Source: Escherichia phage vB_EcoS_ESCO40. Taken from it: a stretch of DNA of 64,000 nt. This document shows, piece by piece, positions 5,795 to 61,952 of this stretch (its first letter is position 1; every line of letters starts with the position of its first letter). The notes beneath the pieces were generated by a model. The model had not been told where the DNA came from, did not search any database, and saw nothing but the letters and a program-made list of their open reading frames with translations. Location of the stretch: the sequence record NC_106514.1; one strand, given 5' to 3'. Made by a program: the position numbers and the translations under genes.

Positions 5795-5812
5795 GTAAAA
5801 TTTCAAAGAAAA

Positions 5813-5832
5813 AGGAGACCCGAAGATCTCCT
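5813..5832 (-). terminator. stem-loop plus U-tract after nrdA
   Basis: AGGAGA / TCTCCT stem; minus-strand transcript ends ...CUCCUUUUUCUUUG. Confidence 0.5.
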
Positions 5833-5840
5833 TGTTTTTA

Positions 5841-31395: not shown

Positions 31396-31478
31396 ATGAT
31401 GTATAATATATACATAAATTTGAGAGAGAAAGTTTCGGATTGATAAGAAAGTCCGAAGCAGAAAAATAAAAATTTTAG

Positions 31479-31508
31479 TTGCTAAATTCTCTCGAAATCT
31501 AGTATAAT
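31479..31508 (+). promoter_or_regulatory. sigma70-type early promoter (TTGCTA-18-TATAAT)
   Basis: TTGCTA 31479-31484, TATAAT 31503-31508, then ATATACATAAATTCGAGGAG; a related TATAAT / CATAAATTTGAGAGAG element sits at 31402-31430. Confidence 0.55.
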
Positions 31509-45347: not shown

Positions 45348-48181
45348 TCCACAGACTGTTCTCCATCATCCCCTTCAGCTCTAATACGAAAATACAATTT
45401 TCTATTTATACCTAGAGCACCGCTGTTTTGGAGAGCAAAATCTGCCTTATTATACGTTAATAAATAGTCATAAGTATACTGATTTTCAATACGTACACTT
45501 CTTAACATCCTATTTTGTGAATCGTGTATTTCAAGTGTATAAAATATACTCTCTATTATATCTTCTTCAGGTATTCTATCCCAGGCTAGTTTCACATCTG
45601 GGCCAACAAACTCAGTTACATCTCCAGAAGCCGTATTAGTTACTCTAAAATTAGATACTACACTAAGGTTTTTAGCAGAGTTAAGCTCTATGGACAGAGT
45701 CACCGGGGAACTTCTTCTACCATTAATATCTACTGCCCTTATCTCAAATATAGCCAGACCTGCTGGTTCCCCAATTATTTCTTGGATCATACGTTCATTA
45801 GGGTTGGTCTCTAACTGTTGTACTATGTAAGGTTCGGCATGGCCTGAGTGCACAATAGAGTAATAAACTACATTATTGGTTAGACTCGGAAGCCAAGATA
45901 ACTCACCATTTTTACCTATAGAGCCTACTAAACCGCCAGGAGTAGGGGTATACTTAAAGTCTCTAGGAGGAAGGACATTATTACTAATATCGGGAATATC
46001 ATTACCGCTATTATCAACCTGCTCAGAGTTGATGAATACATCTTCTCCATACTCCTGTAGAGTAACATTTATCTTTCCTTCCCTAGAGTTTTCCACTTCG
46101 TCTACTAGGAAGTACTTCTTATCCCATCCGTAACGGTCATACGTGAATGCAATAGCATCATTGGGTTCAATCCCTATGAACTGGTATGGTAATGAGAAAG
46201 AAAGTGTTCTTGAGTATCTGGATTTCTTAAGTTCCCTATCAGCAAAACTTCTTGCAGTATAGTAATTAGTAATATTAGCAAAAGATAGTTGTAATTTTTT
46301 ATCTAGGTTCTTGTCCTGTTCCTTATACTTGGAATTATAGAATGTAATAGAATTAGTTTTCCAGCTAAGGGCGGGATCTACGATAGATGCTTGAACTGAG
46401 TTGAATTTATTTCTACCAGTAGTATCTGATAGCTCCAAATCACCGTAAGTATCTAGAAAATTAATCTCTAAGGGAGTATTAGAGTATTTTTCTACAGTAA
46501 CCCTATACTGGCCAGATAAATTGTTAATAGCCCCACCATAGGACTCTAACAAACCTTGCACATTTTTAAATACTGATTCAGATGTATCCAGAATAGTATT
46601 CATTTGTACTATTTGTCTATTTTCTGCTAGTGGATCAGTCCACCCAACGTATCTCCAATATGGCTGCCAAGATACCTGATAGGATTCATCTATAATATCT
46701 AAAATAGCTGCCTCCTGTATTAATTGCTGAAGAGGAAACTGATCAATGGTAATATTAGCGCCATATCTATCAGAGGTTAAGTAATCAAGTGTTTGCCAAA
46801 TACCATTTAAACTAGTACTATTAGCAGTTACTCTACCATCAGAATGATAGACTTTTACTTTTTTACCTTGAATTTCAGCACTAACTTCTGGAATCTCAGT
46901 CCTATTTTCATTAATAGTGAAGCGCACCACTGCGTATGCAGTATCTAGTAGCTTATATCTAGCATCCCAGTACTCCGGCCCATTGCCATTCATATTCTGA
47001 AGGTAGAATCCACGTTCTTTAGCTATATCTACTAGTACTTCAGAGGCTGTTTGATCAGATTTTCCGTGATAAGTCCAAATCCTTATGTCACCATTTCCAT
47101 CATTATACTTATACTCTTGACCATGGACGGATGGACTACTAGAAGAGGTTCCAGATGCTATCCTCTGCATTGTATCTCCTGCTATTTTTTTAGTACCAAA
47201 GCAGGTTCTAGCGGAGCTGTCATTAGCATCTACGCAGATCATAGGGTTATCACCAAAGGAGAAATCAAGAAAACCATCAATCTCCCCCTCAGCAAAGGCG
47301 TATACGACATAAACTATGTTGGGATTGTGTAGTTCTGTATCAGCAAAAATGGGTATTCCAGGAATTTTTTGAACTCCATAAACCACCGGTATGTATTTAG
47401 CAGCAAGGTTAAAATCTATATCCACTTCCTTAGTGACAGTTTCATAGTATTTTTTAAGGCTGTAGCTTCTAGATAAACCAAATAATTTTTTCTTTGATTT
47501 TAGCTTGTATCTTTCTTCTTGAACCTGATATTTTGCTAGGATAGAGATACTTTTATTAGAGTGGAAGAACCCATAGTCTTCTTGGTACTCAGGTCTTTTA
47601 GCCCCGTTAGATGGAACTAATTGTCCTGCTACAACTTCAAGCCCTCTATGGGAGGCGTCATCAGTATATCTACCGTTAACTCTATCAAAGTCATAGAATT
47701 GGTTAGAACAATTCCAGGTAATTGTAGAGGTTCCTACCCCAGAGGTACTAATATTATCTTTAATGCCCCCTCCAGTAATCCTCCCCCTAAAGTATAGTAA
47801 AGGACCATTTGTATCTGGGTCTACTGGTAGAATAGAACCATCTTCGGTAATAATTGCTTGATGAATTGATACGGTTCTATCTAAGAAGGATACACCATTT
47901 TGCACTAGTTTTAGTACTTCATCCTGTGCTGTACCAGTAATAGTAAAAGATAGACTACCAATAGATAAATCTCTATTTTGTTTGTGTGAGCTAATAGACT
48001 TAACTTTACCTGCCTGGTATAAGATGCCATTATATAGTACATCCCTAAAATAATCAGTTAAATAAATAAAAGCAGTACTAGTACCAGTAGAGCCAGGTAA
48101 CTCTAGAGAAATTAGACTAGCAGTTTTTATTCTGCTATTATTTTTTAAGTAGTTTCTAGCACTATCTAGTATTTTTTTCAT
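45332..48181 (-). CDS. baseplate hub protein (pb3-like)
   Basis: 949-aa ORF following the distal tail protein; size and order as in T5. Confidence 0.65.
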   Translation of the reverse strand: MKKILDSARNYLKNNSRIKTASLISLELPGSTGTSTAFIYLTDYFRDVLYNGILYQAGKVKSISSHKQNRDLSIGSLSFTITGTAQDEVLKLVQNGVSFLDRTVSIHQAIITEDGSILPVDPDTNGPLLYFRGRITGGGIKDNISTSGVGTSTITWNCSNQFYDFDRVNGRYTDDASHRGLEVVAGQLVPSNGAKRPEYQEDYGFFHSNKSISILAKYQVQEERYKLKSKKKLFGLSRSYSLKKYYETVTKEVDIDFNLAAKYIPVVYGVQKIPGIPIFADTELHNPNIVYVVYAFAEGEIDGFLDFSFGDNPMICVDANDSSARTCFGTKKIAGDTMQRIASGTSSSSPSVHGQEYKYNDGNGDIRIWTYHGKSDQTASEVLVDIAKERGFYLQNMNGNGPEYWDARYKLLDTAYAVVRFTINENRTEIPEVSAEIQGKKVKVYHSDGRVTANSTSLNGIWQTLDYLTSDRYGANITIDQFPLQQLIQEAAILDIIDESYQVSWQPYWRYVGWTDPLAENRQIVQMNTILDTSESVFKNVQGLLESYGGAINNLSGQYRVTVEKYSNTPLEINFLDTYGDLELSDTTGRNKFNSVQASIVDPALSWKTNSITFYNSKYKEQDKNLDKKLQLSFANITNYYTARSFADRELKKSRYSRTLSFSLPYQFIGIEPNDAIAFTYDRYGWDKKYFLVDEVENSREGKINVTLQEYGEDVFINSEQVDNSGNDIPDISNNVLPPRDFKYTPTPGGLVGSIGKNGELSWLPSLTNNVVYYSIVHSGHAEPYIVQQLETNPNERMIQEIIGEPAGLAIFEIRAVDINGRRSSPVTLSIELNSAKNLSVVSNFRVTNTASGDVTEFVGPDVKLAWDRIPEEDIIESIFYTLEIHDSQNRMLRSVRIENQYTYDYLLTYNKADFALQNSGALGINRKLYFRIRAEGDDGEQSVEWASI

Positions 48182-48792
48182 AAACTTTCCCGTAAATTTA
48201 ATGAGATGCCGGAATATGTTCCGTTATTGTTTAATGTAGATCCGAAAGCATCACCATTCATGAGTTTTGTTCTAAACAGTATCCCATTAAATACTGGTTT
48301 TTCAGCTCCAGTAGTCGTTACAAATAAATCAGGGTATAGATTTATAGACCATGTATTGCCTGATTTGTTAAATGATGTTATTTTGTAAACTTTTGGGTGA
48401 TTGGATAATTTAAATAAATCACCTGGTTTAGGGATACCGGTAAGAACACCTTTTGTATCCATAGTAATATTGGAACCTTTTTGTCCTGCTGGTATATTTA
48501 CTAAGTTAGTATTACCCCTAACCCTAAAAGCCTCATACTGAGGTAATATAACATCAATGTAGCCTCCTGTCCTCTTATACTCTAGAATAAAGGAATCTAG
48601 AACACTATATTCATCAGGAAACAATTCTGGGTAAGAAATATTTATACCCCAGTACTGAGCAGATACCTTAACTTCGTTAACTTTACCATTAGGTAACTCA
48701 TCACGAATTACTGGGTCATTATCAATCAGGTTAACACTTTCGAATCCTAATCCTGAAAGTTCTGGATTCGTGTATGGGTCTGGTAATCTCAT
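48178..48792 (-). CDS. distal tail protein (pb9-like)
   Basis: 204-aa ORF immediately after the tape measure gene; AAGAGGAGAAATTAACT site before ATG. Confidence 0.65.
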   Translation of the reverse strand: MRLPDPYTNPELSGLGFESVNLIDNDPVIRDELPNGKVNEVKVSAQYWGINISYPELFPDEYSVLDSFILEYKRTGGYIDVILPQYEAFRVRGNTNLVNIPAGQKGSNITMDTKGVLTGIPKPGDLFKLSNHPKVYKITSFNKSGNTWSINLYPDLFVTTTGAEKPVFNGILFRTKLMNGDAFGSTLNNNGTYSGISLNLRESL

Positions 48793-48859
48793 AGTTAATT
48801 TCTCCTCTTAGATACAATTATTATAATAGTATTAGAAAATTTTATCAAGAAATTTTTAT

Positions 48860-48894
48860 TTTTCCATAAAGAAAAGGAGGACTCAAAGTCCTCC
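48860..48894 (-). terminator. stem-loop plus U-tract after the tape measure gene, with A/T box
   Basis: perfect 8-bp stem GGAGGACT / AGTCCTCC, 3-nt loop; minus-strand transcript continues UUUUCUUUAUGGAAAAAUAAAAA. Confidence 0.6.
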
Positions 48895-48901
48895 TCCAGT
48901 T

Positions 48902-51900
48902 TTAAGAATTTCCTAGTGTTTTTAGGCTAGCACCATTCTCATTCAGAGCTAATTCTACTGCATCCCTCAGAGCACCGCTATTACTAGAGGCGAACTCTCT
49001 AAAACTAGCAGCATCCATAGCACTAATATTCAGGATGATAGGTCTTCCTGAGGTTGAATTAGAGGAATTTTTTAACTCATCATTAGGTGTAGCTTTCATA
49101 GGAATCATAGGTGTAATTACTTCTGTACCATGTTCTCCCATCTGGTAGCTAACCCCTGGGTACATATTACCACCTTCGGCACGAGGCACAAATGAATTAG
49201 CATTACCAATACCTTGATCACCACGTACATAGGATAGTTCCCCAGCATTAGCAGACATAGATACATCAATGTTCTTCTGACGCTCCCCAAGAGTTAAATA
49301 ACTAGTAGTATCCGCTCCAGAATCTGCAATACTTGACATACTAGAGGCAGAGGATGCCTGCGCTAATGCCAGAGCACCTGCTAATCCTGCCGCTACCATT
49401 AGAGGGATAGAGAACGGGTATGGTACAGCTGTTGCTGCCTGCATAACTGCTACTGCAGTTTGGATGATAATCTGCTTCTTAGCTGCATCTTGTTGAATCT
49501 TCAGCTTTTCAGCTTCTAGCTTCTTCAATTTAGCTTTAGATGCCTCAGATTTACCATCACGTTTCTGTTCGGCGGCGATAGCCTGATCAATGGCACTAAC
49601 CTGCTGACTAGTACTATATTGAATCATGGAAGCCACAGTCTGCATACCAACTGCAATAGTAGAAGTGGTATCTAGAGATCCCTGGGAGAACTGAATCATA
49701 GCATTGGCTAAGTTACCCATACTTTGTGCTACCGCAGTTGCTTCGGAGTTTAGCTCGGACAGCTTAGAGATTGCTTGGTCATAAGAAGCCAATTGATTTC
49801 CCATATCTGCAAATTTCTTATCTTCTCCAGATAACCCAGTAGTAGGGGTGTATACAGCACCTAAAGAAGATCCAACAGAAGCTTGCATTTGAGCATTACG
49901 TTGCGCTGTTAAAGCAGACATTTGAGCCCTTGTCTTAGCTATTTCAGCATTCCAGCGCATCTGCTCATTAGCATTACCTTTAGTAAGTTCCTTCATCTGA
50001 GTATAAAAATCTAGCTGCATTTCCATTTTCTGCATTTCCCCAGCCAGAGGGAACATGGAAGTTAGTGTATTTTCAAAGGCTTCTTGCCTTTTGCGGGTCA
50101 TTTCAGCTTGCTGATCTTGGCGGAATTTCCAGATTTCACGCTCTATCTGTGCTTGAGCACGCCTAGATTGTTCAGCCTCTTTTTGTTTATCTGCCTGTTT
50201 TGTGTACCACTCATACTTTTCCTTTTCAATAGTCAGCTCTAGATTTAACTGCGCCAGACGATACTGAGTATCAGTCATAGTACGGTTATTCAAGAGAGCA
50301 ATCTCACGATCTACACCAAGAATTTTATCTGTGTAATCCTTGACCTTCTTCTGAGCTTCCATACCCTGATTGGTAAGTTTAAGTTTCTCCAGCTGAATTT
50401 TTTCAATTTCTTTCTCAACAGCTTTATTCCCCTGGTTTGTTTTAAGAACACGGCGTAAAGCAGCTTCTTGCTCTTCTAACTGTTGCAACTCTAAACGTCT
50501 ACCAGCTTCCTGAGCCTTTTCCTTATCCTTAGTTTGATTATACACATCAGCTATTTTCTGTTGAACTGCTAACTGATTTTTAGTTTCATTACCAGTTAGT
50601 TTAACATACTCAGATAGAGCCTGAGATGCAGTTTTCATTTCAGACAGGGTGTTATAGCCCAGGTTAAGGTTTTTAACATATTCATCGGCACTCTTACCAG
50701 TGCCTAAGGATAGAGATTCTATGTTTTTTATAGCATCTGCTAAAGTAGCACTAGTTTTAGCAGCAGTATCTGTATTCTGAGCAACGTTCTGTATATCATT
50801 AGCTAAGTCACTAGCAGTTTTCTTAGTTTGATTATATGCTTTCTGTTGTTCAGTTAGCCCTTTTAATACTGTGGAGTTAAAGTCATATACAGCACCAGGA
50901 TCAGTAGTATCCCTCTGTAGATTAATCTGTTTTTGGAATTCTGGATTAGCTTTTGCAGCAGCAGCACCCGCAGCTTGATAGGCTGACTTCCAAGCATTAA
51001 GGTTTTCAGTAGAATCTTCTACCTCCTTACCTAGTCTGGTTACTTGTAGACCCATAGCTGCAGTTTCTTCTACGAACTTTTTATTAGCTTCGGAAGCACC
51101 AGCAGCAGCAAGACCAACAGGAATACCTTCACCAACTTGACGTATGGCTAATCTTGTATAGAAATCCGCTTGCTCCATTCGTTTATCGAATTCGGATTTT
51201 AGCTTATTACGCTTATCAAGAGATTCCTTATACATATCTAGAGCTTTATTATAGCCTTCTTCAGAAGCGGCCAAACTTAAAGCAACAGCACCAACGTTGG
51301 TAGGATCTATCTGTCTATTAGTTTTTTCTTGAGCTCTAGCTGCTTCAGCAGATACAGAAGCCTGAGAAGTATAAAATACTGTGTTGATAGCATCAATTAC
51401 TGGTCCTAAGTACTTAGCAGCAGCTTGTTGTATTGTTCTTAATGCAGCATCAGCATTAGCAGCAAACTGCTCCCATGGAGTAGCACGCAGAACTTCATCT
51501 AGATACCCGAATTGTTTAGTAGATTCTGCTATAGCAGCCTTAGCGTATGCCTGCTGTTTCTGGAAAGTAGTAAGACTATTAATGTTATAAGTTATACCCG
51601 TGTTAGCAGCATTTAGCTGTTTAACATAGTCAGCATAAGCATCGTTAAGACGAATAGTAATACCAAGTTCATCCATAAGTTCGATTTCTTGTTTAGATAT
51701 ACCCTTAATTACACGGTTAAGTGCATCAGTCATATCAACACCAAGAACAGCAGCCGCACGACGTGCTATCAAACCAAACTGCTCCAGTTGTTCAGCATCA
51801 AATCCGTACGCAGAAGCAGAGGATGCTTGTCTCATTGCTTCTTCAAAGGAGATAGCATATCCGGCAGCTTCTTGTAGTGATCTAGCAAGAGACTGAACAG

Positions 51901-52585
51901 GAGTACCTGTCTGAGTACCTACTATAACACCAAATTTTTCTAGACGATTTAGCTGGTCACCTAGTTTAAGTTGTTCGAATGCAGATTGCAAAACGAAGAT
52001 GTTGGAAGCAAGAGCTGCGTACATAATAGGTAAACTACCACCTATCTTAGCCATTGCTGCAAAATCACGAGTTGCACCGCGTGCTGAACCAGAAGTATTA
52101 CCAATAGCTCTAGAAGCCCTACCAGCAGCACCAGTAGTATCATTAAAGCCTTTAGTTGTACCACCTAAAGCTCTATTAGTATCGTATAACCTATCTTGAA
52201 CTTTCTCTGTTGCAGATGCAACATCATTACCCATTGCTTTAACAGATCTAGAAACCCCATCGAATCCAATTTCTAGCTTATCTGTTACTTCAATAAGTTG
52301 AATAGCCAGGTAATCTAGCTTATCACCAATACCCTCAATGGATTTAGTGATACCAGCCATACCCCTACTAGCTTGCATTTTAGTAAGACTTTTTGCTGCC
52401 CTGTCTGCTGCCCTCTCAATGGAGTATAGAGTTTTGGGCATTTTACCTAACTGTTCATTTGTCAGTTCGGAAGCAGCAGCAGCATTTTCTAATGCATCAG
52501 ATACGTTTTCAATAGACTTCGCAGTACGGGTTGCCCCTTTCTGTTTAACGTCTATTAGTAATTCTCGTATTAGCTTATCAGTCAT
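48902..52585 (-). CDS. tail tape measure protein
   Basis: 1227-aa ORF, long Ala/Gln-rich helical regions, between tail-chaperone-sized ORFs and the distal tail protein. Confidence 0.8.
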   Translation of the reverse strand: MTDKLIRELLIDVKQKGATRTAKSIENVSDALENAAAASELTNEQLGKMPKTLYSIERAADRAAKSLTKMQASRGMAGITKSIEGIGDKLDYLAIQLIEVTDKLEIGFDGVSRSVKAMGNDVASATEKVQDRLYDTNRALGGTTKGFNDTTGAAGRASRAIGNTSGSARGATRDFAAMAKIGGSLPIMYAALASNIFVLQSAFEQLKLGDQLNRLEKFGVIVGTQTGTPVQSLARSLQEAAGYAISFEEAMRQASSASAYGFDAEQLEQFGLIARRAAAVLGVDMTDALNRVIKGISKQEIELMDELGITIRLNDAYADYVKQLNAANTGITYNINSLTTFQKQQAYAKAAIAESTKQFGYLDEVLRATPWEQFAANADAALRTIQQAAAKYLGPVIDAINTVFYTSQASVSAEAARAQEKTNRQIDPTNVGAVALSLAASEEGYNKALDMYKESLDKRNKLKSEFDKRMEQADFYTRLAIRQVGEGIPVGLAAAGASEANKKFVEETAAMGLQVTRLGKEVEDSTENLNAWKSAYQAAGAAAAKANPEFQKQINLQRDTTDPGAVYDFNSTVLKGLTEQQKAYNQTKKTASDLANDIQNVAQNTDTAAKTSATLADAIKNIESLSLGTGKSADEYVKNLNLGYNTLSEMKTASQALSEYVKLTGNETKNQLAVQQKIADVYNQTKDKEKAQEAGRRLELQQLEEQEAALRRVLKTNQGNKAVEKEIEKIQLEKLKLTNQGMEAQKKVKDYTDKILGVDREIALLNNRTMTDTQYRLAQLNLELTIEKEKYEWYTKQADKQKEAEQSRRAQAQIEREIWKFRQDQQAEMTRKRQEAFENTLTSMFPLAGEMQKMEMQLDFYTQMKELTKGNANEQMRWNAEIAKTRAQMSALTAQRNAQMQASVGSSLGAVYTPTTGLSGEDKKFADMGNQLASYDQAISKLSELNSEATAVAQSMGNLANAMIQFSQGSLDTTSTIAVGMQTVASMIQYSTSQQVSAIDQAIAAEQKRDGKSEASKAKLKKLEAEKLKIQQDAAKKQIIIQTAVAVMQAATAVPYPFSIPLMVAAGLAGALALAQASSASSMSSIADSGADTTSYLTLGERQKNIDVSMSANAGELSYVRGDQGIGNANSFVPRAEGGNMYPGVSYQMGEHGTEVITPMIPMKATPNDELKNSSNSTSGRPIILNISAMDAASFREFASSNSGALRDAVELALNENGASLKTLGNS

Positions 52586-52633
52586 AATTTATTTTTCCCA
52601 ATAAAAAAGGCTCTGGGCAAATCACCCAGAGCC
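52586..52633 (-). terminator. stem-loop plus conserved TTTTTTATTGGGAAAAATAAAT box immediately upstream of the tape measure start
   Basis: perfect 9-bp stem GGCTCTGGG / CCCAGAGCC; minus strand then reads UUUUUUAUUGGGAAAAAUAAAUU-AUG. Confidence 0.55.
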
Positions 52634-52667
52634 AAGCCTCATCGTGGAACGCCCATTGGAGGAAACC

Positions 52668-53036
52668 TTACCGTGCTCGAGATTTGGCATGTGGCTTAAC
52701 GTTAGGTATTCTACCGTTTTGCGGCTTATGCTTCTCAGCACGTTTACGTGCAGCGTCTACAGCTTTAGCATCAAATATATTGATAATGTGTAGAACAAAT
52801 TCTTTTTCTATAGGATCAGTAATCCCATAAATATCAAATAAAACACCTAAAGCAGCTTTGTCTTTACCTATAAAGATAGGGAAGTCACCAGGTATGAAAC
52901 AGTCAACTAGACTATTATAAATATTCATACTAATAGCTACAATAGGTGGAAAGTCTTCAAGTTCAACAGGCATAGCCTTAGGATCAGGTTCTATACCCAT
53001 TGACTCACAAAGTATTAGATATTGTTGTTTAGTCAT
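52668..53036 (-). CDS. hypothetical protein (candidate tail assembly chaperone by position)
   Basis: 122-aa ORF directly upstream of tape measure gene. Confidence 0.4.
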   Translation of the reverse strand: MTKQQYLILCESMGIEPDPKAMPVELEDFPPIVAISMNIYNSLVDCFIPGDFPIFIGKDKAALGVLFDIYGITDPIEKEFVLHIINIFDAKAVDAARKRAEKHKPQNGRIPNVKPHAKSRAR

Positions 53037-53097
53037 TTTAGATGCTGAGCTTTTAATACACTTATCTGCAAAATCAGCAACAGCATCTAGTAATTCT

Positions 53098-53517
53098 TTA
53101 CGCTTTTGAGCTACGAAAAGTATCTAAGTGGAACACTGTCTGGTTGATCCAAGAATCAAACGCAGCAGAGTTCTGCATAAGCATTACAGCATTATCACGA
53201 CTAAATGGAACTTCAGTAGCAGGATCAGCATCTGTTTCAATCAGCATCAGTTTTTCAACGTCACCTACAGTCAAACCAGTCCAACCTTTAATTGCAGCAT
53301 CAACGAAAGCTTCGATAAACTTATCGTCATCCTGTACTTGAATTAGAGTACCATTAACCCACTCATCGCGTTTGGCAGAAGAGACAACACGTTTAGAAGT
53401 AGCACGAGACATGTAGTTAAGCTCTAGCTTAAAGTTTGGCATACCTGGGTATGAAAGAGTAATAGTACGGGTATCAAGAGTAATATCTTTTAAATTAATC
53501 ATTTTTAATTTCTCCAA
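53098..53517 (-). CDS. hypothetical protein (candidate tail assembly chaperone by position)
   Basis: 139-aa ORF between tail genes. Confidence 0.4.
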   Translation of the reverse strand: MEKLKMINLKDITLDTRTITLSYPGMPNFKLELNYMSRATSKRVVSSAKRDEWVNGTLIQVQDDDKFIEAFVDAAIKGWTGLTVGDVEKLMLIETDADPATEVPFSRDNAVMLMQNSAAFDSWINQTVFHLDTFRSSKA

Positions 53518-54397
53518 AGAAATCTATTCTCACTGGGTCTGAAGAAGCAGTAGGTATAATATCCCACTCAACTTTATACACATCTGAGAAATCTAGGCGT
53601 TTTGTAATACGTGCTAAAGGAAAATCTATAGAAATATTATTATTTCTTATATTTAAAGGTACATCGGTTTCTGGTTCAATATTGTAAACCATATCTCCAG
53701 CAAAACGTTTTAAGTAATATAGAGAAATGGTTGCTGAAGCATTCATTTCATTTACATAGGCTCTTTTATTATTATAGATTTTATTTATATCAAAAACACT
53801 CTTATCTTCTCTCCAAGAGCATTGCTGTTGAAAAGATAAAGAAGCGGAAATAAGGCCAGGTAAGATGCTACCGTTAGTAGAAACTATTACCGGGCTATAA
53901 GACATTGCTTCACCTTGTATAATAGAAGCTGCTTCTCTATATGTAGATACCTCGGAAAATTTCCCTGATTCAATACCAACGTTAAGAATTGGTATATTCT
54001 TATCTAAAGAAAAATCTACAGTAGATACATAGCAGTTCTCAAAGTATACACAGTTATTATCTTTATTTACTATATAGATATTAAACATAATAGGTTCAAT
54101 ATTGTTACTATATAGTGGTAGTAAGAAAGTATTACCTTTTCTATCAAAACCTAGCCATTCGAAAAAATTAGCTTCAGTAAGCGTATTACTAAAATTTACT
54201 GCTAGAGAGATAGAAGAAGGAGTTTGAGCATTTATAATAGAGTCTGCATAGTTAGTTCTACGATGAATAGTCCTACGAAGGGTCTTAAATTCTTCGTAGG
54301 AGGTTTGTACATCATAGTTTGATAGGGCATCAAAATGAAATGCCCTACCATCATACTCAACTATAACTTTTGACTCTCGCATTAGAGAGTAGTACAT
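53495..54397 (-). CDS. tail protein
   Basis: 300-aa ORF immediately downstream of the tail tube gene. Confidence 0.45.
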   Translation of the reverse strand: MYYSLMRESKVIVEYDGRAFHFDALSNYDVQTSYEEFKTLRRTIHRRTNYADSIINAQTPSSISLAVNFSNTLTEANFFEWLGFDRKGNTFLLPLYSNNIEPIMFNIYIVNKDNNCVYFENCYVSTVDFSLDKNIPILNVGIESGKFSEVSTYREAASIIQGEAMSYSPVIVSTNGSILPGLISASLSFQQQCSWREDKSVFDINKIYNNKRAYVNEMNASATISLYYLKRFAGDMVYNIEPETDVPLNIRNNNISIDFPLARITKRLDFSDVYKVEWDIIPTASSDPVRIDFFGEIKND

Positions 54398-54401
54398 TTA
54401 T

Positions 54402-55808
54402 TTATTCACCAGCACTAACTGTGATAGTTTTAGTACCTTTTACGCCAGAACCGTCTTTAGCTACAGCCTTCACAATAACTTCGCCCGTTTTAGAAACATC
54501 AGCAGTTAATAGTCCAGATTCGGCATCAATCGTAGCGGCATCACCACTAGAAATAGACCAAGTCACAGCCTTATTAGTAGCTTCTGGAGGGGTTACCTCA
54601 ACAGACATCTGTAAAGTATTACTATTTGTTACAGAAGTAGCATCAGCAGCAGATTTAACTGTGATTGATTCGACCAGTTTTGGTGGAGTTTTAGCACCAT
54701 CCCCCGTAGCAATCAGATTAGCCACAGTAGTTTTTGTATACTTGTTAGAAAATCCAAGATAACCTTCGTCACCAGTATCCAAATCTGTAGGAATAGCCTT
54801 AAACTCTACTGAAGTACCAAGTACATCATCAGTCTCAATAGTAGGAATGTTAACGTGCGCCTGTTTAGCAACTAACACAGCTGCCGGACGTTCATCATCA
54901 TATTCACCACCAAGGATAAGTGCAATCTCAAACCTGTTAACTACCTTAAGAGTTTTAATTAGATCTTTATATAATTCCATAGATCCTAGAGCTTTATCGT
55001 TAAGGTATGCTGTTAGAGAACCAGTTAATTCAAATGCACCCGTAAATGAGCCGATTGGAATATTTACACGTGACATAATATTCGGGGTTAGATACGTGAT
55101 GTTGTTATTAATGGTAAAAGTACCACCAGTAATAGGAATATCATATGCCTTATCAGAATCCATATCCTTAATTTTTAGGATAGTTAACTTGTTCTTAATG
55201 TAAGAACTCTGAATAGTCATGTAGGTTTCATCATCAATACCTAATGCATCTGGATCAAATGGTTGGCTATCTAACGGAATGAGCTGATTACCATTACCAG
55301 ACCAAGTTACACGACCAATATCTTCAATATCAACGTTAACTTCTGCCTGGTTGATCTGGCAAGAGTCAATATAGCTCCATGCTTTGTCAGTAAGAATGTA
55401 GATGTGCAGCATAGCCAACTCATGATAAGAGTTATCTTTAAAGTTAACCATGAAGTTAGCTTCATTATTATGCGCACCTGTGTCTCCCTCAAGGTTTAAC
55501 GCTTTACCACTAGAAAGAGCATGCCATAACATGTAGTCGGGAACAATCTGTTTATTAGAGGTTTTATCCTTGTATGGCAGGATATAAGTAGAAAAACTCC
55601 ACTCAGCCGCATTCAAGGAATCGTTAAAACGTTTAGAACCACGAGTAGGACGCGGACCAGCTTCGTTAACAGTAATATCTGTTGAGTTGCTGTCCTGACC
55701 CCAAGAAATATCATCCTGAACTAGAATCTCTTGCGTGTTGGTCTTATTGTGACCAGTCTTAACCGTAGACACGAAGATTCGAGTATTACGTAATAGTTGT
55801 AAAGACAT
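54402..55808 (-). CDS. major tail tube protein (pb6-like) with C-terminal Ig-like domain
   Basis: 468 aa; C-terminal ...VTWSISSGDAATIDAESGLLTADVSKTGEVIVKAVAKDGSGVKGTKTITV resembles a bacterial Ig-like domain; position and size. Confidence 0.7.
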   Translation of the reverse strand: MSLQLLRNTRIFVSTVKTGHNKTNTQEILVQDDISWGQDSNSTDITVNEAGPRPTRGSKRFNDSLNAAEWSFSTYILPYKDKTSNKQIVPDYMLWHALSSGKALNLEGDTGAHNNEANFMVNFKDNSYHELAMLHIYILTDKAWSYIDSCQINQAEVNVDIEDIGRVTWSGNGNQLIPLDSQPFDPDALGIDDETYMTIQSSYIKNKLTILKIKDMDSDKAYDIPITGGTFTINNNITYLTPNIMSRVNIPIGSFTGAFELTGSLTAYLNDKALGSMELYKDLIKTLKVVNRFEIALILGGEYDDERPAAVLVAKQAHVNIPTIETDDVLGTSVEFKAIPTDLDTGDEGYLGFSNKYTKTTVANLIATGDGAKTPPKLVESITVKSAADATSVTNSNTLQMSVEVTPPEATNKAVTWSISSGDAATIDAESGLLTADVSKTGEVIVKAVAKDGSGVKGTKTITVSAGE

Positions 55809-55834
55809 TTAATTATTTTCTCCTAATCTGTAAC

Positions 55835-56320
55835 TTATCTGCGAAGTGACCTACGTGGAGGCTGATACCTCACTGTTACATTTATTTCTGCTAAACCATA
55901 TGGGGCCAGTAGACCCTCATCTGTACTAACTGATGTAATGCTCATATCAGTCGCCTCACATGGGAAGGTCGATCCATTAGGTTTACTAACAGTATATTCT
56001 AAATTTCCACCTGTGTCAATAACGGTTTTTATATCCGCTACGAGTTTTTCAAGTTGCTCTTGAATGTCTGTTTTCTCTTTATCGTACACCAGGATTGGAA
56101 GTTCTAAAAACATCCACTGTTGGCCTGAAGGAAGATACTGCCCAGTTTCAGTTCCGATATGAACTGCAACATAAGGAAACTCTCGTATCTCCTCAAACTT
56201 ATAAGTTTGACGTGAGACGTTTCCATACAAGTTATTAAAATATTCATCTGGTTGAGAGCCATCCATTTGTTTGGCTATTCGGTCAACCAGAGCTTGTGCT
56301 ATACTTGTTCTGTGATCCAT
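55835..56320 (-). CDS. tail completion / neck protein (by position)
   Basis: 161-aa ORF between head and tail tube genes. Confidence 0.45.
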   Translation of the reverse strand: MDHRTSIAQALVDRIAKQMDGSQPDEYFNNLYGNVSRQTYKFEEIREFPYVAVHIGTETGQYLPSGQQWMFLELPILVYDKEKTDIQEQLEKLVADIKTVIDTGGNLEYTVSKPNGSTFPCEATDMSITSVSTDEGLLAPYGLAEINVTVRYQPPRRSLRR

Positions 56321-56323
56321 TTA

Positions 56324-57091
56324 TTAGGTTCCTTGATTAACCTTAATTTTGTATCTGGAGTGAATTAAGTCTCTTGCAGCTTTAGCTATCGCCTCTCCAA
56401 TTAGTCTTTGAGGATTTCTAGCACCTGGGTAGGGTCGTAATGACAATCTTCGATATGTAGATACTGCAGGATTAAATACTGAATATGGACGTACCATATA
56501 ATTATATGTAACATTTAATTCAGGAGCACCTTTGCTAGTTCCAGCATCTCTAAGCATAACATCTTTAACTTTTAGAGAATTTGCAAAACGACCTGTTCTA
56601 AATTTAAGTGGAGCTCCTGCTTTTTTCATATCCTTTATTAAGTATTCTTTAGCAACCAACTCCAGAATAACCTTCATATTACTATTTGACACAAAACGAC
56701 CAGAAGCACCGGTTACTGCACCAGAATATCCGTCTTCTACATCTCTAGGATCCCCAAAGTTTACCTCTACTCTACCAGTAGAGCGTTTTTTACCTACAGA
56801 AGATTTCTTGCCTGCGGTTGATTGAATAAGGCTTTCTAAAGCCCCTAGATCTCCTGTTAGGTCTAAGCTAGAAGAAACTGCTTTTAGAATAGAGGCTGTC
56901 CTAACACTAAGGAGATCCTGTGATACCGGTTTTGAGAATTTAAAAGATACTTGAGCAACAGTACCATCTCTAGTGGGATCTTTTAATCCTGTTTCAACAG
57001 AATATACAACAGTATTCTTATTGTTCTCGGAACGTCCAACATTATCTAGCTGCTCCTTAATAATTTGTGTAGCTAAATCAGAAAGAGACAT
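56324..57091 (-). CDS. head-tail joining protein (by position)
   Basis: 255-aa ORF. Confidence 0.45.
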   Translation of the reverse strand: MSLSDLATQIIKEQLDNVGRSENNKNTVVYSVETGLKDPTRDGTVAQVSFKFSKPVSQDLLSVRTASILKAVSSSLDLTGDLGALESLIQSTAGKKSSVGKKRSTGRVEVNFGDPRDVEDGYSGAVTGASGRFVSNSNMKVILELVAKEYLIKDMKKAGAPLKFRTGRFANSLKVKDVMLRDAGTSKGAPELNVTYNYMVRPYSVFNPAVSTYRRLSLRPYPGARNPQRLIGEAIAKAARDLIHSRYKIKVNQGT

Positions 57092-57603
57092 TATACTCTC
57101 CTGTAAACTTCAATAATAGTACGAATATGCTCTGGAATACCAGACTTAGTATTATTAAAGGTAACTGTTTCTCCGCCAATTGTTTTAGCTTGACGGTAAT
57201 CCTGTTTATGCCAATGATCTACTAGCATACATGCTGCAAGTTTGAGATCTTCAGGAATTGGGTTAAATCCACCTTGTGTGTATTCTACATCCATATAACC
57301 TTCCGGAGGATTAAATTTAAGAAGTATAACCCCATCAGAATACAACTTATACTGTTTGGGATCTATCTCCTTATCATTAATAGTCATTTTAGTTACTGAA
57401 GTAGCCGAGGGAGAACTTAAGAAGTATTTTTTACGAGTAGGTTTTGTATTGATTAACTGGTCTACCGCATCAGCATCATCCATACCTAAGAGGCTAGTAA
57501 TCAGCGCGTTGGCAGCAGTAATCATCATCTCTACTCCAGATTCTAGTTCCGGTCGTTTTAACCCGCCGTATAGTCTATAGTCTTCAGCTGTGATTATTTG
57601 CAT
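57091..57603 (-). CDS. head completion / head-tail connector protein (by position)
   Basis: 170-aa ORF whose ATG directly follows the conserved hairpin + A/T box. Confidence 0.45.
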   Translation of the reverse strand: MQIITAEDYRLYGGLKRPELESGVEMMITAANALITSLLGMDDADAVDQLINTKPTRKKYFLSSPSATSVTKMTINDKEIDPKQYKLYSDGVILLKFNPPEGYMDVEYTQGGFNPIPEDLKLAACMLVDHWHKQDYRQAKTIGGETVTFNNTKSGIPEHIRTIIEVYRRV

Positions 57604-57642
57604 TTATTTTTCCCAATAAAAAAGGAGAGCCGAAGCTCTCCT
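57604..57642 (-). terminator. strong stem-loop (UUCG loop) plus U-tract after the major capsid gene, with conserved A/T box
   Basis: AGGAGAGC-UUCG-GCUCUCCU then UUUUUUAUUGGGAAAAAUAAAU-AUG on minus strand. Confidence 0.65.
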
Positions 57643-57662
57643 TATCGGCTGAAAAGCCTGTA

Positions 57663-59039
57663 TTAAGATGCAGCGTAAGTACCAGATACAACGCCATTAT
57701 TAAAGTAACGTTGCAGGTTAACACGCTGAGTAACGTAGTATGCATCACGCTGTTTACCAGCTTGGCGCTCACGTTCAACAGTAACAGCACGCTGACGCGG
57801 CATTACGAAGTTATCTTTATAAACAATAACTGCGAACTCTGCTGAGTTAGCTTTAGCTGGGAAGAATTCAGAAACTACAACCGGCAGACCGTAAATACGA
57901 CCAACTTGACCTTGCAGTTTAACAGCATCGTTACCAACCTGTGCAACATCCTGCCATTCTTCATCTTCCAGCAGATCGTAGTAAGCATCCATAGATACGA
58001 TCAGTACCAGCTTGCTTAGTTTCAGACCATGACGGCCCAGTTTACGACGCAGTTTAGAGATAGTCTTAGCGGTTACCTTTACGGAACCGTCAGCTTTAGC
58101 TTCTGTGACAACCTTAGCACTATCTTCACTAGCAAGGGTCAACAGACCTTTCGGCTTACCAGAACCATCACCAGTCATAAATGCTTCTTCGATAGAAACA
58201 GCGTGTGCTTCAATCAGACGTTTACGCAGCAGCGGTAGCAGAGAGAAGATTGCATCTTCTTCAGTTTCATCAGTAATAAAGGACTTAGCAGCCAGTTTGT
58301 AGGTTTTAAAACTAATTTCAGTTAATGTACCTTTAACTTCGTTACCAGTAGTATTGTCAGTACCATAAGCGGAAGCATCTACCCAAGTAGCTTTACCAGC
58401 TTCTGGTTCAACCAGCATAGTAAGAATCTTACTAGACATCGGCAGTTCTTCGAACAGTGCGCCAACTACCAGTTCTTTCTGCAGGTCACGAATGATACGG
58501 GTAGAGAAAATAGTTTCGTAGTTTTCGCTAGAAACCTGAACTGAGGAAGAAGAGTTTACAGCTTTAAGGTGATTCTGACCATGTTCAGTTTCGAATACGC
58601 CTTTTTCCATTACATAAGATAACAGAACCAGTTTTTCAACTTCATCTTCAAAGGCTTCCTGAGTACCGTACAGTGCTTTAGCAACACTATCACCAACGAA
58701 GGAACGACCTTCACGAGCTGTCAGCAGGGATTTGATTTCGTCCTGAAGACCAACAATAGTTTCCTGCTGTTTTTCTACAGTTTGTGCAAACAGTTCTGCG
58801 CTCTTCTTAGATTTTTCATCCAGGGATTTAACCAGTTCCAGAGCTTCTTCCAGACGCTTACGGTCTTCGCCAACTGCTTTAGAAACCAGGTCATTCATAC
58901 GAGCCAGTTCTTTTTCTTCCTGCTCTTTACGCATACGTTCAGCTTCCTGAGCTTTCTGAGCAGCGGTCAGACCTTCCAGAGATTTAGCCAGATCACCCAG
59001 ACCAAGTTCTTCTTTCAGCTTATTAATATCAATAGTCAT
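57663..59039 (-). CDS. major capsid protein precursor with N-terminal scaffolding (delta) domain
   Basis: 458 aa; N-terminal ~150 aa Glu/Lys-rich coiled coil, high-expression codon usage, follows prohead protease gene. Confidence 0.8.
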   Translation of the reverse strand: MTIDINKLKEELGLGDLAKSLEGLTAAQKAQEAERMRKEQEEKELARMNDLVSKAVGEDRKRLEEALELVKSLDEKSKKSAELFAQTVEKQQETIVGLQDEIKSLLTAREGRSFVGDSVAKALYGTQEAFEDEVEKLVLLSYVMEKGVFETEHGQNHLKAVNSSSSVQVSSENYETIFSTRIIRDLQKELVVGALFEELPMSSKILTMLVEPEAGKATWVDASAYGTDNTTGNEVKGTLTEISFKTYKLAAKSFITDETEEDAIFSLLPLLRKRLIEAHAVSIEEAFMTGDGSGKPKGLLTLASEDSAKVVTEAKADGSVKVTAKTISKLRRKLGRHGLKLSKLVLIVSMDAYYDLLEDEEWQDVAQVGNDAVKLQGQVGRIYGLPVVVSEFFPAKANSAEFAVIVYKDNFVMPRQRAVTVERERQAGKQRDAYYVTQRVNLQRYFNNGVVSGTYAAS

Positions 59040-61864: not shown

Positions 61865-61893
61865 AGTATACATAATCGTATCGAATTTGTAAA
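61865..61893 (-). promoter_or_regulatory. sigma70-type promoter (TTTACA-17-TATACT) for the HNH gene
   Basis: minus strand TTTACA (61888-61893), TATACT (61865-61870). Confidence 0.5.
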
Positions 61894-61915
61894 GGGGATT
61901 TTAAAATACAGGAAT

Positions 61916-61939
61916 GGGATACCAACTGAGTAGTATCCC
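61916..61939 (-). terminator. stem-loop after the large terminase gene
   Basis: GGGATAC / GTATCCC 7-bp stem; minus strand then reads AUUCCUGUAUUUUAAAAUC. Confidence 0.45.
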
Positions 61940-61952
61940 ATCCTATACTTAT

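Follow-up and report, generated by a model that had tools for sequence, protein, structure and literature searches.

Intrinsic terminators as the probable identity of three hairpins in the late structural operon of the T5-like phage vB_EcoS_ESCO40

Three hairpins in the late structural operon

In this work, we have analysed a window of 64,000 nucleotides from Escherichia phage vB_EcoS_ESCO40 (NC_106514.1), which, as judged by sequence comparison, belongs to a T5-like phage: it is 95% identical to phage DT57C and, over the late-operon region, 85% identical to T5. An earlier note on this DNA had described three GC-rich hairpins on the minus strand, each followed by a repeated box, after the major capsid gene and before and after the tape measure gene. 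Hairpins and box are indeed found there, and their placement relative to these genes matches how T5, HdH2 and other relatives are annotated. The stems are perfect and GC-rich as described, but their perfect cores measure 7, 9 and 7 bp at S1, S2 and S3 instead of the 8–9 bp given.

57643-57622, minus strand: hairpin S1, AAGGAGAGC-TTCG-GCTCTCCTT, 3' of the major capsid gene (57663-59039)
52633-52609, minus strand: hairpin S2, GGCTCTGGG-TGATTTG-CCCAGAGCC, preceded by the tail-assembly chaperone gene (52668-53036) and followed by the tape measure gene
48894-48876 (core; extended, 48897-48873), minus strand: hairpin S3, GGAGGAC-TTTGA-GTCCTCC, 3' of the tape measure gene

As RNA, S1 reads AAGGAGAGC-UUCG-GCUCUCCUU, with a cUUCGg tetraloop, and S2 reads GGCUCUGGG-UGAUUUG-CCCAGAGCC. 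The hairpin energies are -14.5, -19.1 and -15.5 kcal/mol for S1, S2 and S3, respectively, and with A-U and G-U extensions the stems reach 9–11 bp, closed by loops of 4, 7 and 5 nt. All three pass a terminator scan and carry the features that define intrinsic terminators, namely a G+C-rich stem-loop on the transcribed strand (stem of 5–14 bp, loop of 3–8 nt) and a U-run, here of 6–9, directly 3' of the stem (UUUUUUAUU at S1 and S2, UUUUCUUUAU at S3). At S1 and S2, the structure rather than the sequence is kept in relatives: in a hand alignment of 7–11 lineages, compensatory double changes were seen in 5 of the 9 pairs of the S1 stem and in 5 of the 8 core pairs of S2, with no broken cell among 63 and 88, respectively. 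For the late strand of this operon, the T5 record (AY543070) annotates rho-independent terminators at exactly the S1, S2 and S3 sites and nowhere else, and the annotation of HdH2 likewise has terminators at these three sites.

Other signal classes were also considered. No Rfam 15 family matched the whole window at its gathering score, and the region 48780-57720 gave chance-level matches alone (E = 0.5–2.6). The T5 nick consensus quoted in the T5 record, 5'-NPu^GCGCN-3', was not found, there being no GCGC in the boxes or in the block upstream of S2. The searchable literature yielded no transcript-end mapping for T5-like phages. Besides S1–S3, the minus strand has a fourth hairpin, of the S1 type, at 5833-5812; the earlier note does not list it.

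The repeated box and the signals that adjoin it

The box comprises, or lies next to, the following features.

57615-57623, minus strand: U-tract of S1, TTTTTTATT, the first half of the box
57601-57614, minus strand: translation initiation region of the head completion protein, made up of GGG(A), the A-rich spacer AAAAATAA and ATG
52600-52608, minus strand: U-tract of S2, TTTTTTATT, the first half of the box
52583-52599, minus strand: translation initiation region of the tape measure protein pb2, made up of GGG(A), an A-rich spacer and ATG
48849-48875, minus strand: U-tract of S3, TTTTCTTTAT, with GGAAAAATAAAAATTTC, inside the T5 feature 'promoter P-G 25'
48820-48848, minus strand: core of the P-G25 orthologue, TTGATA-17 nt-TATAAT (11/12 matches; T5 annotation)
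48790-48808, minus strand: strong Shine-Dalgarno sequence AGAGGAGA (-9.1 kcal/mol) and ATG of the distal tail protein gene (48178-48792)

On the minus strand, the S1 hairpin is followed by TTTTTTATTGGGAAAAATAA and the ATG at 57603-57601, the S2 hairpin by TTTTTTATTGGGAAAAATAAATT and the ATG at 52585, and the S3 hairpin by TTTTCTTTATGGAAAAATAAAAATTTC. The S1 and S2 sequences have 24 identical bases in common. In the whole 64 kb, the 11-mer GGAAAAATAAA has three exact occurrences, one just 3' of each hairpin and all on the minus strand (chance expectation 0.07; none of 100 shuffles reached three). The proposal that the box is a single conserved element with a single function is not supported by the comparison with relatives, where the halves are split or the second half is swapped. 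The first half, TTTT(T/C)T(T)TAT(T), is the U-tract of the terminator. GG(G)AAAAATAAA, the second half at S1 and S2, consists of a weak Shine-Dalgarno sequence and an A-rich spacer abutting the ATG; at S3, the second half is an A-tract, a UP-element-like region upstream of the -35 hexamer of P-G25.

Within the window GGAAAAATAAA is confined to the three sites. Among relatives, the U-tract is kept within the enterobacterial genera, and the second half is exchanged in several genera. The S1 U-tract is present in all enterobacterial T5-like genera examined and is expanded to T13 in phage PMBT27; the second half of S1 is replaced by GAGG in Pectobacterium and by AGG in Erwinia phages, and Vibrio phages have AGGAGG, GGGG or GGGGG before the ATG in its place. 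Similarly, the second half of S2 in Enterobacter phage KKP_3711 is AGGTGA-N5-ATG. In the start regions of the relatives the G-cluster is always found 5–8 nt before the ATG, the remainder being exchangeable. Phage T5 has the same hairpins and the same promoter hexamers, TTGATA-17-TATAAT, in an orthologous and syntenic arrangement, with an S1 intergenic region 100% identical and an S3 intergenic region 92% identical to those of ESCO40, although its annotation is silent on the shared box. At S2 the two phages differ: in T5 an additional gene, T5.141 (with domains of the CapR and zinc-finger types), separates the U-tract from the start of the tape measure gene. This gene is inserted right after TTTTTTATT and AGGAAAAC...ATG stays with pb2, so that the box halves are 0.75 kb apart in T5, whereas they are contiguous in ESCO40.

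The view that the box doubles as a translation initiation region is borne out for the second half at S1 and S2. The start of the head completion protein (170 aa) is supported by a full-length Pfam HCP domain match, and that of pb2 (1227 aa; gene 48902-52585) by its conserved N-terminus. Both boxes were scored as Shine-Dalgarno-led, by a purine/G cluster 5–9 nt before a verified start; from GGG(A) to ATG there are 7–8 nt at S1 and 10–11 nt at S2, and the S2 box-to-ATG spacing differs by 0–4 nt within the genus. Pairing with the anti-Shine-Dalgarno sequence amounts to -4.2 kcal/mol at both sites, against a late-gene median of -6.5, and A-rich spacers ending in ...ATAAATG are the norm in the late-gene start regions of ESCO40. 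Weak Shine-Dalgarno, A/U-rich initiation regions are assisted by ribosomal protein S1. The ESCO40 starts resemble them in their G cluster 5–8 nt before the ATG, their unstructured A/U-rich RNA and their weak calculated pairing with the 3' end of 16S rRNA, but differ from typical cases in that a terminator hairpin directly adjoins them and its U-tract supplies the 5' portion of the ribosome-binding region.

The third copy has another neighbour. The UP elements of σ70 promoters of the rrnB P1 type are A/T tracts at -38 to -59. At S3, -35 and -10 hexamers with a 17-nt spacing, inside the 17 ± 1 range of σ70 promoters, are preceded by A/T tracts at about that position, GGAAAAATAAAAATTTC lying directly upstream of the -35 hexamer; the 26 nt upstream of this hexamer are 85% A/T, and the 11-mer falls at about -52 to -42. 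In sequence, then, the S3 A-tract block is like an UP element of a strong promoter, and the S1 and S2 copies differ from it in having no promoter core. The segment GGAAAAATAAAAATTT would contribute to P-G25 activity, and GAAAAATAAAAATTT recurs at the same distance from a second σ70-type promoter (31461-31508, plus strand). In the T5 record P-G25 abuts S3, and P-J5 lies inside T5.146. Both T5 promoters are of the late, σ70 type and have UP elements; their activity in vivo begins at 30 min, and for P-G25 this late activity was shown by primer extension (PMC7472727). Terminator-to-promoter junctions recur elsewhere in the ESCO40 window. The suggestion that the box is a late promoter thus holds for the third copy only, and there only as the upstream part of P-G25.

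Transcription map of the late operon and alternative readings

What do these elements do in the late operon? We consider it quite probable that all three are intrinsic (rho-independent) terminators punctuating the structural genes, that S1 and S2 are leaky and that the box is composite. The composite reading rests directly on sequence, structure, covariation, synteny, annotation and the lack of a promoter consensus after S1 and S2, whereas partial termination and its role in setting protein stoichiometry are what we infer from these. The promoter search after S1 and S2 gave no site of at least 9/12 matches from which the next gene could be transcribed; the best alignments made by hand, TAATCA-18-TATACG at S1 and CTGATA-18-TAATAG at S2, both lack the final T of the -10 hexamer. 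Since no promoter follows, the low-copy genes downstream would depend on read-through, which for the same reason is presumably partial.

The capsid protein is highly abundant and the tape measure protein is very low-copy. We propose that a late promoter would give transcripts covering the capsid gene and ending in part at S1, behind which read-through would supply the head completion, tail completion and tail terminator proteins. P-J5 would serve the genes for the tail tube and the chaperones, its transcripts ending in part at S2, which would be leaky like S1; beyond S2, read-through alone would reach the tape measure gene, as far as S3. The read-through genes would then be translated from weak, unstructured, A/U-rich initiation regions, and after S3 has ended the tape-measure unit the σ70 promoter P-G25 would restart transcription for the baseplate genes. 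Leaky S1 and S2 fit attenuation that lowers the dose of low-copy proteins, so that one operon could yield both abundant capsid protein and scarce tape measure protein. The earlier idea of a terminator or attenuator that sets structural protein ratios is in keeping with the canonical hairpins, the T5 annotation, the compensatory changes and the absence of a σ70-type promoter after S1 and S2. A similar arrangement is known in phage T7, where the intrinsic terminator T-phi lies right after the major capsid gene 10 and read-through feeds the lower-copy genes downstream. Like T-phi, S1 stands behind the most abundant structural gene, although T-phi acts on T7 RNA polymerase and has no sequence relationship to S1. 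The late genes of T5 are transcribed by the host σ70 RNA polymerase (PMC7472727).

Since the three hairpins correspond to annotated T5 terminators and the box to adjoining known signals, this is ordinary gene-dosage punctuation; S1–S3 and P-G25 are already known from the T5 annotation, and no new kind of signal is revealed. A transcription-unit map of the T5-like late operon is nevertheless useful for annotation and phage engineering.

That one 11-mer should recur exactly at S1, S2 and S3 is explained by the composite model only if the sites have a compositional style in common or go back to an old duplication. Alternatively, the whole box or just GGAAAAATAAA might be one discrete cis-element read at all three sites by a single phage or host factor, such as a late-transcription/antitermination factor or a CsrA-like protein binding GGA in the loop of a UUUAUU/AAUAAA hairpin, which would couple termination with downstream expression. 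The occurrence of the 11-mer nowhere else in the window speaks for such a factor, as do the usually higher conservation of the intergenic regions than of their flanks in enterobacterial genera and the retention of the S1/S2 consensus at both loci in Providencia, Klebsiella, Proteus and Erwinia phages. That the 11-mer is also present upstream of a promoter could still be due to common descent or to a common factor. The box can also form a small A-U hairpin with GGGAAA in its loop, but this is worth just -1.5 kcal/mol and 21 of 200 shuffles fold equally well. Moreover, the second half is swapped for Shine-Dalgarno-bearing starts at S1 (Pectobacterium, Erwinia, Vibrio) and S2 (KKP_3711), the T5 halves stand far apart, the S3 box is lost in Providencia, Proteus and Vibrio phages though terminator and promoter are kept, and phages with GG, AGG, T13-run or ATT-duplication variants are viable. 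We therefore regard a single factor as improbable. It is in our opinion highly improbable that the boxes at S1 and S2 serve as UP elements for promoters, cryptic or late-specific, which restart transcription as at S3. GAAAAATAAA does occur four times in the window, in two cases in the UP position of good σ70 promoters, terminator-to-promoter junctions recur, and aligning S2 to P-G25 puts CTGATA at the -35 position. However, TATACG and TAATAG are not acceptable -10 hexamers, the T5 record annotates no promoter after S1 or S2, and the box-to-coding spacing, which varies by 0–4 nt within the genus, would break any register between UP element and -35 hexamer. Such promoters would also start transcription within the coding sequence, some 35 nt or more from its beginning, leaving the head completion and tape measure genes dependent on read-through.

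RNA processing has to be weighed as well. RNase E usually cleaves A/U-rich single strands beside a stable hairpin, and the A/U-rich segments here have that context; the hairpins could then act mainly after transcription, the stem-loop protecting the upstream capsid or tail-tube mRNA after the cut and stability setting the ratios, with the same outcome, an excess of upstream over downstream message. Against this stands the complete signature of an intrinsic terminator at each site, with its U-run of 6–9, which a mere stability element does not need, and we regard such a main role as improbable, though RNase E processing and termination are compatible and not mutually exclusive. Processing by RNase III is unlikely because stems of 9–11 bp are too short for an enzyme that takes about 20 bp or more of double-stranded RNA.

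Conservation of the S1 module and of the block upstream of S2

Intergenic DNA at S1 and S2 is, in enterobacterial genera, as a rule better conserved than the coding DNA on either side; only the capsid-side flanks at S1 in Erwinia KEY and Pectobacterium phages depart from this rule. Between Tequintavirus and Priunavirus 47 nt of the S1 module are identical, although the flanking genes are only about 60% identical. Directly upstream of the S2 hairpin there is a further conserved element.

52634-52667, minus strand: noncoding block of about 34 nt, GGTTTCCTCCAATGGGCGTTCCACGATGAGGCTT, with the pattern UUUCCUCCA-N-GGGCGUUCCACGA...

Taken together, block and S2 hairpin span 58 nt, over which 409 phage records show at least 99% identity; the block can still be recognised in Vibrio phage Cody, so its conservation spans Vibrio to E. 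coli phages. It is not coding, because frame and indels vary among relatives. The near-invariance of the S1 module and of S2 with its upstream block exceeds the needs of a generic terminator or start region. Both may, though we rate the probability as low, be more than generic terminators: a site of factor- or ribosome-dependent attenuation, a 3'-UTR element, or the source of a stable 3'-end-derived RNA. If so, attenuation or a 3'-UTR element would dose the tape measure protein relative to its chaperones. The S2 upstream block is the sole item here with research potential. A small GGC-loop-GCC hairpin is also predicted by folding just 5' of the S1 terminator (57647-57658, minus strand); its stem is kept, with differing loops, in T5, PSTCR5, Erwinia KEY, Klebsiella, Pectobacterium and SP3 phages.

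Hairpins and box at three late-operon junctions

Three minus-strand hairpins in the late region of the phage, S1 (3' of the major capsid gene), S2 (before the tape measure gene) and S3 (3' of the tape measure gene), are each followed directly by a near-identical A/T sequence, which we call the box:

57643-57601, minus strand: S1, AAGGAGAGC-TTCG-GCTCTCCTT, followed by TTTTTTATTGGGAAAAATAA and the start codon (ATG) of a 170-aa protein
52633-52583, minus strand: S2, GGCTCTGGG-TGATTTG-CCCAGAGCC, followed by TTTTTTATTGGGAAAAATAAATT and the start codon (ATG) of the 1227-aa tape measure protein
48897-48849, minus strand: S3, GGAGGAC-TTTGA-GTCCTCC, then TTTTCTTTATGGAAAAATAAAAATTTC

The earlier note had placed a hairpin plus box at these three places, and our analysis confirmed this exactly. 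S1 and S2 share 24 identical bases, and the 11-mer GGAAAAATAAA has three copies in the 64-kb window, located solely at S1, S2 and S3, against 0.07 expected, so that the repeat is not due to chance. All three hairpins were detected by a terminator scan, with folding energies of -14.5, -19.1 and -15.5 kcal/mol for S1, S2 and S3, respectively. The 170-aa protein behind S1 is a head completion protein, as judged by an end-to-end Pfam match. A small GGC-loop-GCC hairpin (57647-57658, minus strand) lies 3 nt upstream of the S1 terminator; its stem is found with differing loops in six lineages and is absent from the Proteus phage.

In phage T5, the hairpins and the promoter next to S3 are known features with existing annotation. 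The region has 95% identity to Escherichia phage DT57C, with matches in 548 T5-like (Demerecviridae) records. In the T5 record AY543070, precisely these hairpins are listed as putative rho-independent terminators, and no others are listed for the late strand of the structural operon; 'promoter P-G 25' adjoins the third of them and 'promoter P-J 5' lies within T5.146. Phage HdH2 carries an equivalent annotation of all three terminators. The T5 late promoters are of the sigma-70 type with UP elements, and the transcripts from P-G25 and P-J5 are visible at 30 min and accumulate afterwards (Klimuk et al., PMC7472727).

Composition and conservation of the box

Our results show that the box is a composite of several signals and not a single element. 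Its first half is the U-tract of the terminator, TTTTTTATT at S1 and S2 and TTTTCTTTAT at S3. At S1 and S2 the second half consists of GGG(A) and an A-rich spacer reaching the start codon; late-gene start regions of this phage generally have A-rich spacers with an ...ATAAATG ending, and the calculated pairing with the 16S rRNA 3' end at the S1 and S2 starts is weak (-4.2 kcal/mol, the median of 20 late genes being -6.5). At S3 the second half is separated from the next ATG by about 70 nt, and GGAAAAATAAAAATTTC is placed directly 5' of TTGATA-17-TATAAT (48848-48820), occupying approximately -52 to -42 of the orthologous P-G25, whose upstream region includes GGAAAAATAAAAATTT. The 10-mer GAAAAATAAA has a single additional copy in the window:

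31461-31508, plus strand: early-type promoter TTGCTA-18-TATAAT, preceded by GAAAAATAAAAATTT, an A-tract block as found 5' of P-G25

Since the distance of GAAAAATAAAAATTT from a good promoter at this second copy equals that at P-G25, the A-tract block is a recurrent upstream promoter element of the genome. The box is thus a real repeat, in which a terminator tail is joined twice to a start region and once to a promoter upstream element. A single function for the whole box, as the earlier note had it, is therefore not upheld, and the functions offered there as alternatives, among them a late promoter and a translational enhancer, each hold for a different copy.

The three junctions were compared in T5, HdH2, Epseptimavirus contigs, Erwinia KEY, Pectobacterium DU_PP_V, Providencia PSTCR5 and PR1, Proteus VTCCBPA139, Klebsiella Roth37, Enterobacter KKP_3711 and four Vibrio phages, and for the S2 junction only also in Aeromonas AhSzw-1. 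Compensatory double changes were found in five of the nine pairs of the S1 hairpin, with no pair broken, and compensatory changes in five of the eight pairs of S2; by this covariation, the hairpins are maintained as structures. Klebsiella, for example, has GGCCUAGGG/CCCUAGGCC and SP3 has AGAGAGC/GCTCTCT. The U-tract is retained throughout the enterobacterial genera compared. In the second half of the box, a G-cluster invariably lies 5-8 nt 5' of the ATG and its sequence is swappable (GAGG in Pectobacterium, AGG in Erwinia, AGGTGA in KKP_3711, and AGGAGG, GGGG or GGGGG in the Vibrio phages), a pattern typical of a start region. In Tequintavirus and Epseptimavirus, the spacing between box and tape measure ATG differs by 0-4 nt. 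GG, AGG, a T13 run and an ATT duplication are each present in viable variants. T5 itself is a natural dissection of the two halves: T5.141, a protein with CapR and zinc-finger domains, is inserted immediately 3' of TTTTTTATT, and AGGAAAAC...ATG stays 5' of the tape measure gene (pb2). The S3 box sequence is not conserved in the Providencia, Proteus and Vibrio phages, in which terminator and promoter are retained.

Gene conversion is not supported as the cause of the likeness of S1 and S2, since changes at S1 have no counterpart at S2: SP3 carries GG at the first site and GGG at the second, and in Erwinia S1 diverged and S2 did not. In the enterobacterial genera both intergenic regions are usually better conserved than their coding flanks (identity of 71-83% versus 57-78% for S1, and 70-85% versus 47-74% for S2), the exceptions being the capsid-side flanks of S1 in Erwinia KEY and Pectobacterium. 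Forty-seven nt of the S1 module are identical between T5-type phages and Providencia phage PSTCR5, and a 53-nt S1 query has at least 99% identity in 355 records. The intergenic regions surrounding S1 and S2 are also insertion hot spots: T5.141 lies between S2 and pb2 in T5 (L003 in our set, 6059-6811), Salmonella phages SP3 and FGS017 (L049, L051) carry endonuclease genes between the capsid gene and S1, and in Vibrio T5-like phages (L046, L047 and L048, about 6880-7680) the chaperone gene is separated from the tape measure gene by an unrelated gene of about 250 aa.

Proposed transcription units and protein dosage

Consensus scans found no sigma-70-like promoter serving the next gene after S1 or S2, and candidates there were rejected because no usable -10 hexamer was present in these scans or in the alignment to P-G25. 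The genes behind S1 and S2 therefore depend on read-through, namely the head completion, tail completion and tail terminator genes between S1 and P-J5 (56019-55991), and the tape measure gene between S2 and S3; with such dependence, S1 and S2 would have to be leaky terminators. Together with the terminator scan and the T5 annotation, the lack of promoters after S1 and S2 sustains the earlier reading of the hairpins as terminators or attenuators.

We infer that the dose of low-copy proteins is lowered by leaky termination and weak start regions, which would yield less of them than of the capsid and tail-tube proteins encoded upstream. S3 would end the tape measure unit, and the distal tail and baseplate genes would be transcribed anew from P-G25, as a unit with a strong Shine-Dalgarno (calculated -9.1 kcal/mol). 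In phage T7 the T-phi terminator is placed 3' of the capsid gene, and the arrangement here is functionally alike. RNase E processing at the A/U-rich segment could contribute in addition; action of RNase III on the hairpins is unlikely because their stems are short.

The ribosome-binding region 3' of P-G25 (48790-48810, minus strand; AGAGGAGAAATTAACTATG) looks, we assume, the same as the synthetic 'RBSII' of the pDS/pQE expression vectors, which was presumably modelled on the P-G25 site. At 61865-61943 (minus strand), a 13-bp hairpin without a proper U-tract is followed by TTTACA-17-TATACT and a strong Shine-Dalgarno. This element is probably the promoter for a unit that begins at a nicking-endonuclease-like gene, takes in the portal and protease genes and ends with the capsid gene at S1.

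The block upstream of S2 and other sites

A further conserved element adjoins the S2 hairpin:

52667-52634, minus strand: noncoding block, GGTTTCCTCCAATGGGCGTTCCACGATGAGGCTT (about 34 nt), which separates the chaperone stop codon from the S2 hairpin

It has one copy per genome, is confined to Demerecviridae and is annotated almost nowhere. Block and hairpin together have at least 99% identity across 58 nt in 409 T5-like records, and the block can still be recognised in Vibrio phage Cody, where the chaperone protein has only about 39% identity. A coding role (peptide FPPMGVPR), with some changes that look synonymous, was rejected, because, depending on the phage, the block is in frame 0, +1 or -1 with respect to the chaperone gene, indels of 1-2 nt occur inside the block (T5, DT571/2 and KKP_3711) and several lineages have an in-frame TGA (the window, T5, HdH2 and Erwinia phage KEY). 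Sequestration of the tape measure Shine-Dalgarno or translational coupling by pairing with the block was not supported, the complementarity being no better than that of dinucleotide shuffles (mean z of -0.25 in 13 lineages); KKP_3711 and Cody retain the block with a different downstream start region. A possible antiterminator, in which the block would pair with the hairpin's 5' arm, scored only -3.2 kcal/mol in RNAalifold and had no covariation; its CC/GG pairs are broken in the KKP_3711 and Aeromonas phages, and the folds are inconsistent between lineages. The block matched no Rfam family and does not hold the T5 nick-site consensus. A sigma-54-like TGGAAC-N5-TTGGA seen by eye on its opposite strand is not conserved in Cody, and GC-rich metagenome matches were disregarded, being about as numerous as expected by chance for 17 specified bases.

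Upstream of this block, the T5.142-like chaperone frame (53036-53150, minus strand) is open 5' of its ATG, which has no Shine-Dalgarno (-0.1 kcal/mol). Its overlap with the T5.143-like gene, at the end of the latter, is in the +1 (or -2) frame and not in the usual -1 frame, which suggests an unusual frameshift geometry for a chaperone fusion protein. A fourth S1-type hairpin lies beyond the late operon (5812-5833, minus strand; AAGGAGATC-TTCG-GGTCTCCTT) and is distinguished from S1 by a single compensatory pair. With TTTTTCTTTGAAATTTTAC and the promoter TTGCTA-17-TATAAT (5794-5766, minus strand) that follow, it forms another terminator-to-promoter junction.
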